Positions 4,882 through 22,891 of a stretch of 64,000 nucleotides of DNA are shown in pieces (the stretch's first letter is position 1; each line of letters begins with the position of its first letter). The translations under genes were made by a program, and so were the position numbers. Location of the stretch: contig JBAYFM010000005.1 in the NCBI GenBank assembly GCA_041667185.1, forward strand, positions 9,285 through 73,284. The letters are read 5' to 3'. The stretch is from Patescibacteria group bacterium. GTDB lineage: Bacteria; Patescibacteriota; Patescibacteriia; SG8-24. The notes beneath the pieces were generated by a model. It did no database searches. It was not told the DNA's origin and saw nothing but the letters and a program-made list of their open reading frames with translations.

Positions 4882-5628
4882 CTACGCCACCCTCGTCAGC
4901 GGCCCGAAATGATGAACGACATCCTTGCGTTCGACGACGATCTCCCAGCCCCGCCGCCGCGCGTGGCGGTAGAGCACCATGTTCGGATTGAAACAGATCG
5001 GCTGCTCCACGAGCTGCAGGAACCGGATGTCGGATTGCGTGTCGCCCACCCCGATCGATCCCTTGAGCGTCAGATCGTTCCGGGCGATGGCGCGGCGCAG
5101 GATGACCGCCTTGTCCGAGATCATGTCCAGGAACAGCGTCGTGCCGGTGAACCGGTTGTTCTTATCCACTTCGTAGATGCGGCCATAGACCTTGTCGAAG
5201 CCGAGCTTGGCGCAGAACGGTTTCAGCACCTCGCGCGGCGAATTGGAGATGGCCAGCAGGAAATAGCCTTTCTTCTTCAGGTCGCGCACGAGGTCGCGGG
5301 TATAGCGGTAGACGCGGTCCTTGTGGAAATCAACCACGCGCTCGGCGACGCGCATGAACACATCGCTGTCCACGCCTTTGATATGACCCTCGAAAGCCTT
5401 GATGACCCCGCCGATGTAATCATCGTAGTGCCCGGTGCGGTCGAGCCAGCGCTGGTAGGGCTTTTCATACATCTTGCGCAGCTTCTTCTTGAAGATGCCG
5501 GCGTGGATCAAAGCCTCGGTGATCTCGATGAGCAGGCTCGATCTGAAGATCGTACCGTCGATGTCGAAGATCGCCACTTTGCGCTGGCCGGAGGCTTTTT
5601 TCGGCTTAACGATGGTCTTTTTAGCCAT
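4882..5628 (-). CDS. HAD-superfamily hydrolase (HAD-IB / phosphoserine phosphatase-like)
   Basis: IFDIDGTI motif I (DxDGT). GVGDTQSD motif IV. Confidence 0.7.
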   Translation of the reverse strand: MAKKTIVKPKKASGQRKVAIFDIDGTIFRSSLLIEITEALIHAGIFKKKLRKMYEKPYQRWLDRTGHYDDYIGGVIKAFEGHIKGVDSDVFMRVAERVVDFHKDRVYRYTRDLVRDLKKKGYFLLAISNSPREVLKPFCAKLGFDKVYGRIYEVDKNNRFTGTTLFLDMISDKAVILRRAIARNDLTLKGSIGVGDTQSDIRFLQLVEQPICFNPNMVLYRHARRRGWEIVVERKDVVHHFGPLTRVA

Positions 5629-7592: not shown

Positions 7593-8336
7593 TTGGACAT
7601 CCGGCGCCGGGCGGCTATAATGACTCGACCTGTTCCGATCCGTCACCTGAACACCATGCCGATCAGACATTTAGGGATCATCCTCGACGGTAATCGCCGC
7701 TGGGCGAAAGCCCAAGGACTGCCGACGCTTGAAGGCCACCGCCGCGGCTACGAGAACCTGAAGACCATCGGTCTGGCGGCCCTCGACCGCGGCATCGAGC
7801 ATTTCTCAGTCTTCGTCTTTTCGACGGAGAACTGGCAGCGTTCCGCCGAAGAGGTCGGCTATCTCATGGACCTGCTGCTCCGGGCACTCACGAGCGAGGT
7901 CGGATTTTTCGTCGAGCACGGGGTGCGTTTGCGGATCATCGGCTCCCGCGACCGCCTGTCAGCGAAAATGATCGAGGCGATCGCCGCCGCGGAAAAAACA
8001 ACCGCCGCCGGACAACGCGGCCAGCTCAACCTCTGTCTGAACTATGGCGGCCGGCTCGAGATCGTCGAAGCCGTGAAAAAACTCATCGCCGACGGGATCG
8101 CGCCCGAAGCCGTCGATGAGGCCGCGATCGCGTCCCGGACCTGGTCGGCCGGCATCCCGGAACCAGATCTCATCATCCGCACCTCGGGCGAACAGCGCTT
8201 GTCCGGTTTCCTGACCTGGTCCGGCGTCTACAGCGAACTGCTTTTCGTAGACAAAAACTGGCCGGATTTTTCCATCGCCGACCTAGAGGACGCGATCGAG
8301 GATTTCAGCGAACGTGAACGGCGCTTCGGACGTTAA
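7593..8336 (+). CDS. uppS: undecaprenyl diphosphate synthase (isoprenyl transferase)
   Basis: ILDGNRRWA, FSTENW and RTSGEQRLSGFL motifs. N-terminus carries a duplicated PIRHL segment, so the true start may be ~7656. Confidence 0.85.
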   Translation: MDIRRRAAIMTRPVPIRHLNTMPIRHLGIILDGNRRWAKAQGLPTLEGHRRGYENLKTIGLAALDRGIEHFSVFVFSTENWQRSAEEVGYLMDLLLRALTSEVGFFVEHGVRLRIIGSRDRLSAKMIEAIAAAEKTTAAGQRGQLNLCLNYGGRLEIVEAVKKLIADGIAPEAVDEAAIASRTWSAGIPEPDLIIRTSGEQRLSGFLTWSGVYSELLFVDKNWPDFSIADLEDAIEDFSERERRFGR

Positions 8337-9154
8337 GCCTGGAGACTGGGCGACGACAGCTGCGGCTCCGGAGCCGGTTTTGGCGTTGCGGCTGCCGGAA
8401 CCGGAGCTGGCCGCAGCGCGCGCCAGTTCAGCCCGGCGGCCAAGAGATTGGCGGCGAGCAATCCGCCGATGAAGATCGTCGCTGGCTGGAACAGGATGGA
8501 CAGGAACGAACCGATCGCTGCGACGGCGGCGAACAGGAGCTGGCCGCGCGGCGCGAGCGGCGAAGTCCGCGGGTCGGTCAGCATGAAGAAGACGAAGAAC
8601 GATGAAATGCTGACATACAGATACAATTCCATCGTGAACGGCTGGCCGCTGAACCAGGATCTGGCGCCGAGCAAGCCGATGAAGACCGCGAGAAACGCCA
8701 GGATCTGGCGCCAGCGTCCGGTGAAGAAAGCCAGCAAGACCGAACCAGCGACGATCGTCAGCAGATGCGACGCGTCGATCCACCAGGAGAGCCTGACGCC
8801 CAGGAACAGGACGCCGCACAGCAATCCGAAAGCCGCCGGGTTGAAAATGTTCCGTCGCTGGATCTTCAGGAGATGTTTGGAGACGATCGCGATCGCCGTC
8901 ATTAGGACGACCGCGAACATGGAACTGCCGGGCGCCGCAACGCCAGCGATGATGAGCCCGGTGATGAGTCCTGATTCGGACAGCGCCAGACGGCGCGTGC
9001 GGCGATAACCGACGGCAGCCTCCAGGACCGCGGCCGTGCTGGCGGCGAGCAGTAGCTGCCACAGAATCGCTTCCGTTCCGAGCCGCCAGACGCTCGAGAC
9101 GGCAAGCAGCAGTATCAGCAGGATAGTGAGTTGTTTGACGTTCAATTTAGGCAT
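8333..9154 (-). CDS. polytopic membrane protein, last gene of the flavinylation module (possibly RnfD/NqrB-like, unverified)
   Basis: About 8 predicted TM helices. Overlaps the apbE stop by a few nt. Contains an NPAAFG motif. Confidence 0.5.
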   Translation of the reverse strand: MPKLNVKQLTILLILLLAVSSVWRLGTEAILWQLLLAASTAAVLEAAVGYRRTRRLALSESGLITGLIIAGVAAPGSSMFAVVLMTAIAIVSKHLLKIQRRNIFNPAAFGLLCGVLFLGVRLSWWIDASHLLTIVAGSVLLAFFTGRWRQILAFLAVFIGLLGARSWFSGQPFTMELYLYVSISSFFVFFMLTDPRTSPLAPRGQLLFAAVAAIGSFLSILFQPATIFIGGLLAANLLAAGLNWRALRPAPVPAAATPKPAPEPQLSSPSLQA

Positions 9155-10049
9155 AAGCGCGATGATTGATAAGCGCGGCGGCAAGTCTGGGACTGGCCTG
9201 GACCTCGCCGTCCGCGGCGATCGCCAGACAGGCGGCCCCGGCGTGGCTCTCGACGAACTCCGGAACCTCTCCGGGCGGCAGCAGGAAGGCGGCCGTGCTC
9301 AGGATGTCGGCGGCGGCGGCGCTAGGCGCGAAGACCGTGAGGCTGCCGGCGCGGTCGCCATTACGTCCGTCGCGGGCGTCAACCAGGTGTTCCCGGCCGA
9401 CAGCGCGCGCCGCGGCCGCGCGAAAATAATTACCCGACGTACAGACCGCGCCGCTCGCTGTTTTAATGACCGCGGCGATCAGTTCCGGATGCCGCGGATC
9501 GCGGATGCCGATGTCCCAGGCGTCCTGACCGGGCGGCAATCTTTTGACCGCGAGATCGCCGCCGGCTTCGATGATCACCGCCGCGTCGTCGGCGAAGGCC
9601 GCCAGCGCCCGATCAAGCGCTAAGCCTTTGACGATCGCATTCAAGTCGAGCACGGAACGCGGCGGCAAGGTCACGCGGCCGCTGGCGTCATCAATGACGA
9701 TCTGATCGAAAGTCGCGGCTGGCAGATCGCGGCCGACGAACCCCGGAGCCGTGAAACGACCGACGAGCGGATCGAAGCGGCCGCCGGTCTCGGCAGCAAC
9801 AGCCAAAGCGCTTTTGAGAGCCGACATGAATTCTGGCGAAACGGCGGTCGCGAGTCCGGCACAGGCGTTAATGGTCACGATTTCCGAATCCGGCCGAAAC
9901 AGGGAAAAGACCTTCTCCAGCTTTTCGAATTCCGCGAAAGCCGCGGCGGCCGACGCGGTCCAGTCCCGCAATGCCGAACCGGGATGGACCGTCACGGTCA
10001 CCCGGGTGTGCATGTGCGTTTCCTCGAATACCAGCGGCGCGGCAGGCAT
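9147..10049 (-). CDS. apbE: ApbE-family FAD:protein FMN transferase
   Basis: DLNAIVKG, EAGGD, TSGNY and HLVDARDG match ApbE conserved blocks. Confidence 0.75.
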   Translation of the reverse strand: MPAAPLVFEETHMHTRVTVTVHPGSALRDWTASAAAAFAEFEKLEKVFSLFRPDSEIVTINACAGLATAVSPEFMSALKSALAVAAETGGRFDPLVGRFTAPGFVGRDLPAATFDQIVIDDASGRVTLPPRSVLDLNAIVKGLALDRALAAFADDAAVIIEAGGDLAVKRLPPGQDAWDIGIRDPRHPELIAAVIKTASGAVCTSGNYFRAAAARAVGREHLVDARDGRNGDRAGSLTVFAPSAAAADILSTAAFLLPPGEVPEFVESHAGAACLAIAADGEVQASPRLAAALINHRAYA

Positions 10050-10670
10050 CTATTTTTGCGACAAGGCGACGATCTGCGCGAGGTCGTCGCGGAACGCGTC
10101 GCTCGTATAGGTCGCGCCAGAGACGCCGTCGATCTGGGCGCCCTGGGCCGCCAAGGCCTGCTGCACCAGATAGGTCACGGCGTAATACGACGGCGGCGAA
10201 TCCGGGATTGCGAGATTCTTGATGTCGGTCCACTTGCCGCCGGCGACCGTAACCTCGATGGTCATCAGCCCCCAGGGAGATCCGGAGCTGGCGGTATAAG
10301 CGCCGTCACGATAATTGCCGGAGGTCGCGGTCGGCGCTGTCGGCACGGGCGCCGCAGTATCCGCTGGTAACTGAGACTGAAAATCTTGAACTGGTCTCAA
10401 GGTCCGCGCTCGGTCATCATCGTCATCATTCCATTCATCCTCCCTTTCGCCATCATCGTCATCGAAATATCCGGCCGGCACGACAGGCCGCGCAACCTGA
10501 CCGGAAGCGGCAACCGTCTTGGCTGGCAGCGGCGCAGCGAATTGCGCCCTGGCCGCCTGATCCAGGTAAGCCCAAAAAGACAGCAGTGTGGAACCGCACA
10601 GCAAACTCACGAGCCACGGCCGGATCTTGCCCGGCACTGACCGCCAGATTCCAAGAAAAATATTTTTCAT
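10050..10670 (-). CDS. FMN-binding domain protein with covalent flavinylation motif
   Basis: Signal/TM anchor. FMN_bind-like block MTIEVTVAGGKWTDI...IDGVSGATYTSDAF with an S-G-A-T flavinyl-threonine motif. Acidic D/E linker. Confidence 0.7.
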   Translation of the reverse strand: MKNIFLGIWRSVPGKIRPWLVSLLCGSTLLSFWAYLDQAARAQFAAPLPAKTVAASGQVARPVVPAGYFDDDDGEREDEWNDDDDDRARTLRPVQDFQSQLPADTAAPVPTAPTATSGNYRDGAYTASSGSPWGLMTIEVTVAGGKWTDIKNLAIPDSPPSYYAVTYLVQQALAAQGAQIDGVSGATYTSDAFRDDLAQIVALSQK

Positions 10671-10677
10671 ACATCGA

Positions 10678-10932
10678 TCATTTCGCAAAAATACGGATCA
10701 GCTCGATCTTCTCGCCGCGCGTCATCCTCTTGATCGCCGCTTCCCGGCGCAGCGCGGCCGATCGCGAAGCATACGCCTGGACGCAGACCAGCCGAGCCGG
10801 CCGGCGGGAGCGCACGTACTTCGAACCGCGTCCGGCATTATGCTCGGCCAGACGTTTCACCGGATCGCGAGCGATGCCGGTATACAAACTGCCGTCGGCG
10901 CAGCGCGCCAGATAAACCGACCAACCAGACAT
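10678..10932 (-). CDS. GIY-YIG nuclease-family protein
   Basis: WSVYLARCADGSLYTGIARDPVKRLAEHNAG...KY GIY-YIG core. Confidence 0.65.
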   Translation of the reverse strand: MSGWSVYLARCADGSLYTGIARDPVKRLAEHNAGRGSKYVRSRRPARLVCVQAYASRSAALRREAAIKRMTRGEKIELIRIFAK

Positions 10933-20597: not shown

Positions 20598-20993
20598 CTA
20601 CTTATTGAGCCACGTCACGGTCAGCTGCAGCACCGTCGCAAAAGAAACCCAAAGCAGATACGGGATCTGGGCGTAAGCGATCCAGCGCGCCTGCGGAAAG
20701 ATCGCGACCATCGCCCAGACGAGCGTGCCCAGGACCAGCAGGATATCAGCGGCCGCCAGAAAATTATTCTTGAGTCCGAACTGGATGGGCGTGAACGCGA
20801 AATTAAAGATCAGGTTGAGGATGAACGGCAAAACGACGATGAAAGCGATCTTTTTCTGCGCGGCCAGCAGGAAAACGCGGCCGAACGAGACGGCGATCGC
20901 GATATACAAGACCGTCCAGACCGGCCCGAAGAGGTAAGCCGGCGGCGCCCAGGAGGGTTTCAGGAGTTGTTGATACCAGTCGTAAGTAGTCAT
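20598..20993 (-). CDS. tspO: TspO/MBR tryptophan-rich sensory protein
   Basis: WYQQLLKPSWAPPAYLFGPVWTVLY signature. Five TM helices. Confidence 0.8.
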   Translation of the reverse strand: MTTYDWYQQLLKPSWAPPAYLFGPVWTVLYIAIAVSFGRVFLLAAQKKIAFIVVLPFILNLIFNFAFTPIQFGLKNNFLAAADILLVLGTLVWAMVAIFPQARWIAYAQIPYLLWVSFATVLQLTVTWLNK

Positions 20994-21040
20994 AGGTGAA
21001 GTCCTTATTTTATAACCGACGCGCTCATGATGCCGCGGCG

Positions 21041-22891
21041 TCAAGGACACTTAGTGGCGTAACTGGCGTTCATACAGCCGGTAAAACACTTGCTTCGATC
21101 GGATCCAGCTTTCAACCAGGAGGAAATGCAGACGTTGGAACAATTAGACTTTTCGATCAGGTCGTTAATGGGATCGCAGCCGGCCAAACAGGCGTCATAG
21201 GGCCCCATACTATTATCAATGGCTTCACAGCCAGCTATACACTGATCATAGGCGTCTTGTTTAGCCTCTTCACAGTTCGGAGCTGGCGGCACAGGAGAAG
21301 GAGAAGGCGACGGTACCGGCGCGGGAGTCGGCACGATATCAAGATCGGGCATCGGCACGGGCTGAGGTCGAGGTTTCGGCGCGGGCACGGGCGCCGGCGG
21401 TACGGGATCAGAGTCCGGTTCCGGATCATCGAAAGGCTCCGGATCGACGAGAAGTTTCTTGGGCATCTCCGGGATCAGGAGCGAACCGAAAATGCCGTCC
21501 AGAACGCCGCCGCCTAAATACGTCATCTTTTTGAGAGGACCGTCGATGACAGCCTGTATATCCGCGCGCAGCGGCTGGTCCGGACGGGTTTTATCGATCG
21601 CCAAGAGCAGCCCCAGCACGTCATTCAAAGGACTGAGCCAGCCTGCCTTGGCGTCGTCGAGCGTATTCTCCATGATCTTGATCCCGGTCTTATCGTCCGC
21701 GACGGCTACGCCGACCGCCCACGGGACTTTCCAGCCTTTGACCGCGTCCAGGTCACCACGGACCATCACGTCGACCAGAATGGGCATGCCGACCGCGATC
21801 GCGACCCCGGCCGCGACCGGCAAGCCAGCCGTCGCCACCAGGCCGCCCGCCGCAAGATAGACCGGCAACATGGCGACGTTCATATAAAAACCAGCCGTCT
21901 CGTCCAGCGCGCCGCCGATCGTATTGAGCCAGCCGTTCGTATTCACGATCTTTTGACAGACGATGTCATTAAGCATGAGACCGCTCTGCATCTGGCTATC
22001 CGTATCGCCGATCACCATCGCCGAACAATCGGCTAAAGCGTCGGCCCTGGCGGCGGGTATGATCTCGAATGACGTCTCGTTGAGAGCCAGCATCCCCCGC
22101 TCCTCAAGCAGACCGAGGAAGCCGGCATAGAAAGCGTCGAGCCAAGCGAGATCATCGACGCTGAGGATTACCTTCGCTCCGCCGGCAATCGGCACGGCGA
22201 CCCTGGCCTTGGAATCATCGACGATCGTCGTCACCGCCGCGAACAGCTCTCGCAACGACCGCTCCGACTTCACGAACGACGGCTTGAGCTCCGACAGATC
22301 GGCCGGCAGACCGTCAGCCGCTTTCTTGAGGATGCTCGCACTCATGGCCAAAAACGCCCGGGCAATCTCTCCTTTTCTGATCTTACCGGCATCAGTACCT
22401 TTCAAAAAACTCGGGATCGCCGGCGCATAGATAAAGATGTTCCTGATCTCGTTCGATGTCCGGACTTCCAACTGATTACCGTCATTTTTGACCTGAACCA
22501 CCCGAAAAGAAACCTGATCGGGAGCGAACGCTCCTTTGGCTTTGTCGTACGCGATCGGCGGAACCGCGGCGATGACCTCGGTCGGTGTGACGCGTAGCGC
22601 CGGAATCGTCAGAATCTCGCCAATGTGCGTAGTGTAGATCACCGAAGTCGCAGCCGCTGCATCAAGACCCGCGCCTCTGATGGAAATAACATCGAACGGA
22701 TAGACCCCGTACTTGTCGAACTTGATGGCAATACTGCCATCGGCGGGCTGCTCAATAGTCTGCGACTTCTGATCAGCGACCAGCGACGAATCATGTAATT
22801 TATTCCACAAAAAGAACAGCGCCGGCAGGCCCAGGATGATGACGACCGCTGCCGTGATCCGTGTCGATCTCTTATCAATTCTTATTCTCAT
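21041..22891 (-). CDS. large membrane-anchored hypothetical protein with Pro-rich linker and C-terminal Cys-rich domain
   Basis: N-terminal TM. Mid hydrophobic segment. P-rich linker (PVPPAPVPAPKPRPQP...). Ten Cys in the last 75 aa. No recognisable family. Confidence 0.6.
   Translation of the reverse strand: MRIRIDKRSTRITAAVVIILGLPALFFLWNKLHDSSLVADQKSQTIEQPADGSIAIKFDKYGVYPFDVISIRGAGLDAAAATSVIYTTHIGEILTIPALRVTPTEVIAAVPPIAYDKAKGAFAPDQVSFRVVQVKNDGNQLEVRTSNEIRNIFIYAPAIPSFLKGTDAGKIRKGEIARAFLAMSASILKKAADGLPADLSELKPSFVKSERSLRELFAAVTTIVDDSKARVAVPIAGGAKVILSVDDLAWLDAFYAGFLGLLEERGMLALNETSFEIIPAARADALADCSAMVIGDTDSQMQSGLMLNDIVCQKIVNTNGWLNTIGGALDETAGFYMNVAMLPVYLAAGGLVATAGLPVAAGVAIAVGMPILVDVMVRGDLDAVKGWKVPWAVGVAVADDKTGIKIMENTLDDAKAGWLSPLNDVLGLLLAIDKTRPDQPLRADIQAVIDGPLKKMTYLGGGVLDGIFGSLLIPEMPKKLLVDPEPFDDPEPDSDPVPPAPVPAPKPRPQPVPMPDLDIVPTPAPVPSPSPSPVPPAPNCEEAKQDAYDQCIAGCEAIDNSMGPYDACLAGCDPINDLIEKSNCSNVCISSWLKAGSDRSKCFTGCMNASYATKCP

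Follow-up and report, generated by a model that had tools for sequence, protein, structure and literature searches.

A 64,000-nucleotide stretch of contig JBAYFM010000005.1 from a Patescibacteria group bacterium (assembly GCA_041667185.1), referred to here as the window, carries on its minus strand (8333-10670) three closely packed genes that encode, in this order, an anchored protein with a flavin mononucleotide (FMN)-binding domain (FMN_bind, NqrC/RnfG-like), an ApbE-type flavin adenine dinucleotide (FAD):protein FMN transferase and a short membrane protein of the RnfD/NqrB fold. On balance, the three genes probably form a minimal transmembrane electron conduit that works with flavins only. 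The module is related to a known system and is not categorically new; it is widespread, mis-annotated and unclassified. A preliminary description had delimited the same three genes, pointed to their tight packing and overlap, recognised the anchored FMN_bind protein with its DGVSGATYTS motif as well as the ApbE enzyme, and suggested a minimal membrane electron-transfer unit. The open reading frames (ORFs), domain matches and motifs described below bear out the former points, and the last fits the conserved gene order, the gene fusions and the topology statistics. Three further statements had to be revised: flavinylation was called extracytoplasmic, which cannot be read from the sequence of an ApbE that has no signal peptide, lipobox or transmembrane (TM) segment; eight TM helices were counted where the structural model and the alternating charges of the loops give ten; and the membrane protein was considered unassignable, whereas it belongs to a redox family.

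This membrane protein matches PF03116 (NQR2_RnfD_RnfE) with 56.2 bits against a cut-off of 27.7, and the same domain is carried by all 77 of its homologues. An identical protein in NCBI is automatically annotated as RnfABCDGE subunit D, while the scores against the corresponding NCBIfam models stay below their cut-offs (TIGR01946, rnfD, 40.9 versus 207; NF002011, RsxD, 42.8 versus 415). The AlphaFold2 (AF2) model, built with 75 homologues, reaches a pLDDT of 94.9 and a pTM of 0.88. When it was compared with the PDB in Foldseek, the 15 best-ranked matches were without exception chains of RnfD (TMq 0.71-0.73) or NqrB (TMq 0.65-0.73), followed by urea and Amt channels at E values of about 0.07 or worse. 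A single-sequence phmmer search of the PDB gave no match, whereas the family profile reached the solved RnfD and NqrB. Besides PF03116 the protein has only a Pro/Ala-rich C-terminal tail, and the NAD-binding domain PF00175 is absent.

The alignment of the family profile with the solved proteins falls into two blocks and skips residues 148-187 of Clostridium tetanomorphum RnfD and 222-276 of Vibrio cholerae NqrB, a segment that holds the flavinylated Thr (T236 in NqrB). This flavinylation loop of about 40-70 residues in RnfD and NqrB shrinks to 5-16 residues in the short family, in which none of 75 members contains an [ST]GA[TS] motif. Judged by these alignments, the outward loop bearing covalent FMN in RnfD and NqrB has been lost from the short protein. 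Its place is taken by an SWW motif situated 5-16 residues before the next helix, with W124 present in 75 and W125 in 71 of the 75 members, and it is proposed that the FMN_bind protein docks its FMN at this loop. Across the family, loops with mean Lys plus Arg (K+R) counts of 1.0, 2.1, 2.7, 2.0, 1.0 and 2.5 alternate with loops of 0.09, 0.27, 0.05 and 0.04, the value of 0.27 belonging to the SWW loop; both termini are therefore expected in the cytoplasm, and the place where the loop was deleted should face outward.

The interior of the protein retains what resembles a flavin site. In NqrB, riboflavin is hydrogen-bonded by T162, N200, N203 and D346 (Kishikawa 2022, PMC9325719). The equivalent positions of the window protein lie in the ITG, FNPAA and TDPxTSP motifs, and those corresponding to T162, N203 and D346 belong to the best conserved of the family: T65 is Thr or Ser, N105 is Asn and D194 is Asp or Glu in 75 of 75 members, and the position of N102 is occupied by Pro, Asn or His. 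By analogy with NqrB, we infer that the RnfD-like protein holds a non-covalent flavin in a riboflavin site of this type.

The FMN_bind protein, which corresponds to a 206-residue gene call in locus L087, matches PF04205 with 29.5 bits (cut-off 22); in it, an acidic linker connects the signal-anchor at the N-terminus with the FMN-binding domain at the C-terminus. Its closest solved match is 8p2a_A (7.7e-14), an FMN-binding domain from a study of a multi-flavinylated protein; the window sequence IDGVSGATYTS lines up residue for residue with IDAVSGATYTS of 8P2A, and Thr187 is therefore the predicted acceptor, so that the modifiable Thr assumed earlier is present on alignment. The protein thus combines the PF04205 match with the acceptor motif D-x-x-[S/T]-G-A-[T/S], of which VSGAT is invariant among CPR (candidate phyla radiation) and Bacillota orthologues, and [ST]GA[TS] occurs in every FMN_bind ORF that adjoins an RnfD-like gene. 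Covalent attachment of FMN to Thr187 is predicted on these grounds. Because the anchor obeys the positive-inside rule, the FMN domain should face outside: the flanks have family means of 2.33 (N-terminal) and 0.65 (C-terminal) K+R, with the excess on the N-terminal side in 55 proteins and on the C-terminal side in 4, which predicts an N-in/C-out orientation. The linker contains an acidic tract (DDDDGEREDEWNDDDDD) that might bind cations; similar D/E-rich linkers are found in the CPR relatives L001 and L002 and not in Bacillota.

The ApbE protein matches PF02424 with 156.6 bits, the domain beginning at residue 13, and is homologous to 1VRM, 4XDT and 6NXI, its closest solved match being 1vrm_A with 92.7 bits. 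The motifs DL..KG, GGD, TSGxYxR, H221 and DxxST are invariant (D135, K141, G142, GGD163-165, T204, S205, G206, H221, D248, S251 and T252), and the enzyme looks functional, with its catalytic motifs including the catalytic-site His intact. A signal peptide, lipobox and TM segment were looked for in the window ApbE and none was found. The N-terminal Kyte-Doolittle hydropathy (KD19) does not exceed 0.37, an in-frame stop lies directly upstream of the gene, and neither a lipobox (0 of 74 relatives) nor a hydrophobic N-terminus (none of about 74 orthologues) occurs elsewhere in the family. Since ApbE has no export signal, the most likely course would be flavinylation in the cytoplasm before export of the small C-terminal FMN domain, and with this order of events an FAD exporter would therefore not be needed. 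ApbE enzymes without a signal have been documented with cytoplasmic substrates (PMC12052999).

The ATG of the ApbE gene directly abuts the TAG stop of the FMN_bind gene, with no nucleotide between them, and the ApbE and RnfD-like genes share 8 nt (ATGCCTAA), an overlap that, as far as gene layout can tell, is one of translational coupling. Overlaps of 8-14 nt occur at the same junction in L001, L004 and L005, and in L002 a 3-nt gap without overlap is found. As a separate observation, the FMN_bind and ApbE genes of the window stand in the same frame, one TAG apart (10047-10052), as they do in L001 (around 5103-5108, where the frame is probable), and read-through at this stop would yield an exported FMN_bind-ApbE fusion. 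As a general mechanism such read-through was ruled out, the two genes being out of frame or overlapping in L002, L004 and L005, and the shared frame is probably a coincidence.

Relatives of the membrane protein were found in at least 547 genomes in a scan of species-representative genomes, and when the family profile was run against 1.84 billion cluster representatives (50% identity clusters), 787 were returned at E<=1e-30, nearly all of them matched as a single unbroken stretch and mostly 230-350 residues long. The gene order FMN_bind, ApbE, RnfD-like is kept in 71 of 87 loci, and the three-gene module was seen in CPR, Bacillota, Gemmatimonadota and Chloroflexota. Going by their record titles, roughly 56 of 80 genome loci belong to Bacillota (Paenibacillus, Bacillus altitudinis, Priestia aryabhattai, Sporolactobacillus, Alicyclobacillus, Sulfobacillus), 10 to Gemmatimonadota, 6 to archaea, 3 to CPR (Gracilibacteria, Peribacteria, Collierbacteria), 2 to Chloroflexota and 3 to others. 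When all ORFs within 6 kb were clustered for 86 loci, the three module genes were the only ones to recur universally. In about 33 Bacillota loci the module is flanked by an OmpR-type response regulator and a histidine kinase, which have heavy-metal-type and RppA/B models among their top NCBIfam matches, all below cut-off, and in 9 loci it adjoins a DUF2231 membrane protein. Five Bacillota loci (L016, L028, L065, L074 and L075) have FMN_bind followed by the RnfD-like gene with no adjacent ApbE, and Sporolactobacillus laevolacticus holds both kinds of locus (L028 without and L052 with ApbE). In L009 and L012 the ApbE gene is split into two ORFs, which could reflect a frameshift or a pseudogene.

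Gene fusions and the cupredoxin neighbours of DPANN members support the conduit role and possibly a link to metals. The fusion proteins P0186 and P0188 consist of a cleavable signal peptide, FMN_bind, exactly one TM segment, a basic loop and the RnfD-like domain; FMN_bind and the RnfD-like domain are therefore physically coupled in these proteins, with the FMN domain facing outward. At the cytoplasmic C-terminus, P0125 and P0195 carry FAD_binding_6 and NAD_binding_1 and P0075 carries NAD_binding_1, an architecture that makes these three the published NQR/RNF-like type. P0125 and P0195 score in among the unfused proteins in the profile search. Their fused ferredoxin-NADP reductase (FNR) modules indicate that the RnfD-like core takes in reducing equivalents from the cytoplasm. 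An overlap with the gene of a ZIP metal permease is seen for P0125; in L088 (GCA_022561615.1, 4201-6491) the FNR-fused RnfD-like gene begins at the last base of a ZIP gene, which hints at a reductase-permease pair; FMN_bind and ApbE genes are not found within 5 kb upstream of the FNR-fused gene in L088, and L006, also a locus with an FNR-fused homologue, likewise has no adjacent copies. The surroundings of P0186 contain three cupredoxins, DsbD, a thioredoxin-like protein, FTR1 and an Fe-dependent repressor.

Nine loci, six of them archaeal and the others L053, L056 and L073, lack both FMN_bind and ApbE; most of them have, next to the RnfD-like gene, a gene for a small protein that is secreted or anchored. 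Among the neighbours examined, those of L019, L027, L039 and L073 are cupredoxins, that of L056 is a YHS metal-binding protein and that of L011 has no Pfam match. The loci paired with cupredoxin or YHS proteins come from metagenome-assembled genomes (MAGs) of DPANN archaea (Aenigmatarchaeota, Micrarchaeota and an unclassified archaeon), a low-GC 'Gammaproteobacteria' MAG and an Omnitrophota MAG. These neighbours therefore suggest that the RnfD-like core pairs with different outward one-electron carriers. The long members of L010, L083 and L084 were considered as hidden NAD-binding fusions and ruled out: their additional length is an extra TM segment followed by a Ser/Thr/Gly-rich domain of about 150-200 residues, which has no Pfam match and by topology should lie outside the membrane.

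In the mechanism that we envisage, the ten-helix RnfD/NqrB-like protein would span the membrane, its N- and C-terminus both cytoplasmic, and would bind a non-covalent flavin in the retained riboflavin site, while the FMN transferred by ApbE to Thr187 would fill, in trans, the outer pocket vacated by the lost loop. The docking of this FMN is modelled on an AlphaFold-multimer prediction for a fused homologue (Huang 2024). Electrons would move in one-electron steps from a cytoplasmic or membrane donor to the flavin of the RnfD-like protein, from there to the FMN of the FMN_bind protein and on to an extracytoplasmic acceptor, most plausibly Fe3+, Cu2+ or a small redox protein, the direction being the presumed one. 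FMN_bind would have been flavinylated by ApbE in the cytoplasm, its small C-terminal domain being exported afterwards. With NqrD/E and RnfA/E missing, the conduit is not expected to pump ions, and because a fused NAD(P)H-binding domain is absent the donor must act in trans. A more far-reaching version sees in the RnfD-like protein a free-standing electron module that swaps partners (FMN_bind in bacteria, cupredoxins in DPANN, optionally FNR) and whose covalent flavin is installed before export by a signal-less ApbE; this version is put forward tentatively, as a possibility that we would not yet favour. If it is true, CPR and DPANN cells without a respiratory chain could pass electrons through the membrane, for instance onto Fe or Cu or to dispose of reductant.

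Several points weigh against a conduit. An electron donor was not found in the operon, in the 64 kb window or recurrently in the 80 related loci, and the neighbouring ORFs include no recurrent partner linked to NAD(P)H, ferredoxin or quinones. ApbE is predicted to be cytoplasmic and its substrate domain to be outside, and this mismatch between a cytoplasmic-looking enzyme and an exported-looking substrate is the main unexplained feature of the module. We know of no precedent for flavinylation ahead of Sec export, and to our knowledge no ApbE substrate has been reported to mature in this order. Channels are distant relatives of the RnfD/NqrB fold, and since Na+ handling in NqrB was formerly also ascribed to the conserved Asn and Asp, the conservation of these residues does not prove a flavin site. 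Finally, CPR bacteria are generally devoid of quinones and respiratory chains (PMC7507113).

The kinship with urea and Amt channels raises the possibility that the RnfD-like protein is a permease for metals or other ions (e.g. Fe2+, Cu+ or Na+), for which the flavinylated FMN_bind protein or the archaeal cupredoxin would prepare the substrate as an outward reductase or metallochaperone, with electrons arriving by another route. Such a role would suit the ZIP gene that overlaps an FNR-fused homologue, the FTR1, Fe-dependent repressor and cupredoxin genes near P0186, the cupredoxin and YHS neighbours, the acidic D/E tract of the CPR FMN_bind proteins and those adjacent Bacillota response regulators that match heavy-metal-type models best, albeit below cut-off. 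It is nevertheless unlikely, as NqrB has no membrane-spanning cavity, its centre being filled by riboflavin (Kishikawa 2022, PMC9325719), and the same ligand positions are conserved here. Moreover, FNR fused to the cytoplasmic C-terminus fits an electron input and not a permease, ZIP and FTR1, where present, are separate genes that already cover transport, and the reductase would be left without an electron source. A decaying remnant of an Rnf or Nqr operon without a function of its own, which the NCBI annotation as subunit D and the absence of the other subunits might suggest, is effectively refuted by the roughly 787 family representatives, the gene order conserved across phyla together with invariant motifs, the confident compact fold of the AF2 model and scores far under the rnfD and RsxD cut-offs.

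Two other explanations start from the signal-less ApbE. Combined with a substrate outside, such an enzyme calls for some trans-membrane step, and the RnfD-like protein might move or present FAD, FMN or riboflavin for an ApbE docked on the cytoplasmic face, making the module a maturation machine for FMN_bind and not an electron path. The overlap of the ApbE stop with the RnfD-like start, seen from CPR to Bacillota, and the flavin-binding site that seems to be retained would agree with this, and extracytosolic flavinylation elsewhere needs a dedicated FAD exporter according to one report (PMC9973259), none being encoded here. We regard flavin trafficking as quite improbable, given that RnfD-like genes occur with cupredoxins and without ApbE or FMN_bind, that five loci have FMN_bind with no adjacent ApbE and that RnfD-like domains are fused to FNR modules. 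Furthermore, we know of no RnfD/NqrB protein with transporter activity, and the direct transfer of FMN by ApbE from bound FAD to a protein Thr would be hard to accomplish across a bilayer. Alternatively, the whole system could face inward, with a cytoplasmic FMN_bind domain that is flavinylated there, as in the fumarate reductase case of Klebsiella, and feeds or drains a cytoplasmic flavin site of the RnfD-like protein. Although no ApbE member has an export signal and cases are documented in which both ApbE and its substrate are cytoplasmic (PMC12052999), this arrangement is very unlikely in view of the N-in/C-out anchor (55 proteins against 4), of the cleavable signal peptide and single TM segment that precede an N-in RnfD-like domain in P0186 and P0188, and of the position of the deleted FMN loop, and hence of the empty pocket, on the outer face.

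Where the preliminary description saw a module with an unknown partner, the electron conduit proposed here is a relative of the published NQR/RNF-like complex (Méheust 2021, PMC8238504; Huang 2024, PMC10979944). The latter likewise pairs an NqrC/RnfG-like FMN_bind protein with an NqrB/RnfD-like subunit, which as in the window lacks a flavinylated Thr of its own (PMC10979944); it is also found in CPR, unidirectional electron flow to the exterior has been proposed for it, and its FNR-fused members P0125, P0195 and P0075 fall in the same profile family as the window protein. However, the NQR/RNF-like complex is defined by a fusion of PF03116 with a C-terminal PF00175, which is missing in the window protein and most of the family, so that the module has no built-in NAD(P)H input. 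In addition, a signal-less ApbE gene sits between FMN_bind and the RnfD-like gene, a difference from the NQR/RNF-like complex, and the unfused form is frequent among Bacillota and Gemmatimonadota and not just in Actinobacteria and CPR. By operational definition the module fits none of the ten published flavinylation systems, as the key genes that define the other nine do not match its gene content either. Méheust 2021 and Huang 2024 make no mention of cupredoxin partners, DPANN or a signal-less ApbE in such a context, and the pairing of RnfD-like proteins with cupredoxins was found in neither paper. A full-text search for literature on stand-alone RnfD-like proteins or on RnfD in CPR or DPANN gave Huang 2024 only.

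With Rnf (RnfD/RnfG) and Na+-NQR (NqrB/NqrC) the window protein shares its fold (TMq 0.65-0.73), its Pfam family and the FNPA and TDPxTSP motifs including the NqrB riboflavin ligands, and the SGAT Thr of the FMN_bind protein resembles T225 of NqrC. In contrast to these complexes, RnfA/B/C/E and NqrA/D/E/F are missing, the covalent-FMN loop is deleted and the RnfD-like protein has about 273 residues compared with 305-415 in solved RnfD and NqrB chains. Apart from the module's own genes, no RnfA, B, C, E or G and no other Rnf/Nqr subunit or redox gene was found across the 64 kb, and none of RnfA, B, C, E and G recurs in the 80 loci; the earlier statement that no other Rnf/Nqr subunits are present thus stands for the remaining subunits, but the membrane protein itself is an RnfD/NqrB homologue. 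The module is not an Rnf or Nqr complex and has no basis for ion pumping. In the flavin-based extracellular electron transfer (EET) of Listeria (Ndh2, EetA/B, PplA, FmnB), as covered in PMC8238504 and PMC9973259, a membrane-tethered FMN_bind protein flavinylated by an ApbE enzyme also serves a monoderm as outward terminal carrier, and the flavin transferase is encoded in the same locus, as it is in the window. There, however, the membrane component is EetA/EetB, whereas the window has an RnfD-like protein and neither Ndh2 nor a dedicated quinone; and FmnB acts outside the cytosol and needs an ECF FAD exporter (PMC9973259), whereas the window ApbE has no signal and an exporter gene is absent. 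The cytoplasmic ApbE of Klebsiella pneumoniae (PMC12052999) is signal-less and dedicated to a co-encoded FMN_bind-type substrate like that of the window, but this substrate is a soluble cytoplasmic fumarate reductase, while the substrate domain in the window is predicted to be exported.

A widespread unfused module (about 787 clusters, at least 547 species genomes) is covered by none of the operational classes in the main flavinylation survey, and its RnfD-like proteins are misleadingly auto-annotated as 'Rnf subunit D'. As a conserved membrane redox module it bears on the redox balance or metal acquisition of the host cells, and it may be the minimal core from which the Rnf and Nqr electron paths were elaborated, or a reduced form of them. 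The combination of a signal-less ApbE with an exported substrate also raises the question of where and when flavinylation occurs. Since the module is present in culturable Bacillota (Bacillus altitudinis, Priestia aryabhattai and several Paenibacillus and Sporolactobacillus species), it is testable by genetics and biochemistry. The coordinates of the features discussed are collected in the table.

Table. Positions of the module genes, their predicted functional features and selected neighbours in the window and in related loci.
Feature	Sequence	Position	Strand	Remarks
FMN_bind (NqrC/RnfG-like) gene	window	10050..10670	minus	206 aa from ATG; PF04205
ApbE FAD:protein FMN transferase gene	window	9147..10049	minus	300 aa; PF02424
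Short RnfD/NqrB-like membrane protein gene	window	8333..9154	minus	273 aa from ATG; PF03116
Overlap of ApbE stop and RnfD-like start	window	9147..9154	minus	8 nt, ATGCCTAA
FMN_bind hydrophobic anchor/signal	window	10563..10616	minus	residues 19-36, WLVSLLCGSTLLSFWAYL; KD17 1.67
FMN_bind acidic tract between anchor and FMN domain	window	10413-10463	minus	residues 70-86, DDDDGEREDEWNDDDDD
Flavinylation motif DGVSGATYTS	window	10101..10130	minus	residues 181-190
Thr187 codon	window	10110-10112	minus	predicted FMN-phosphoester acceptor
SWW motif in outward loop	window	8780..8788	minus	S123 W124 W125; site of the deleted SGAT loop
ITG, FNPAA and TDPxTSP motifs	window	8573..8962	minus	equivalents of NqrB riboflavin ligands; N102 also equivalent
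T65 codon	window	8960-8962	minus	riboflavin-ligand equivalent
N105 codon	window	8840-8842	minus	riboflavin-ligand equivalent
D194 codon	window	8573-8575	minus	riboflavin-ligand equivalent
Small GIY-YIG protein gene	window	10678..10932	minus	7 nt upstream of module
Cupredoxin neighbour	L019	5321-5971
Cupredoxin neighbour	L027	4621-5343
Cupredoxin neighbour	L039	4452-5015
Cupredoxin neighbour	L073	4112-4537
YHS metal-binding protein neighbour	L056	5551-5979
Member with extra C-terminal TM and Ser/Thr/Gly-rich domain	L010	5992-7359		domain ~150-200 aa
Member with extra C-terminal TM and Ser/Thr/Gly-rich domain	L083	3470-4840		domain ~150-200 aa
Member with extra C-terminal TM and Ser/Thr/Gly-rich domain	L084	5539-7263		domain ~150-200 aa
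Two-component system example	L005	3997-6476
Two-component system example	L043	6710-8615
Further entry of the two-component/DUF2231 set	L059	6772-7242
Further entry of the two-component/DUF2231 set	L061	6835-7338

The small GIY-YIG gene directly upstream of the module is probably co-transcribed with it, an obvious functional link being absent. A GIY-YIG gene also lies directly upstream of the module in L001 (4067-4444) and close by on the opposite strand in L002 (3142-3414), and it is absent from the Bacillota loci. At the other end, a convergent UppS (Prenyltransf) gene shares 4 nt with the 3' end of the RnfD-like gene (8333-8336), and UppS is the convergent neighbour in L001 as well. An Rfam scan of 7.0-12.0 kb, covering for example FMN riboswitches, was negative, and a consensus scan for promoters and terminators of the same region was uninformative. 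Farther away, at 20598-21050 on the minus strand, the window encodes a tetrapyrrole-binding membrane protein of the TspO/MBR family (1.8e-31).

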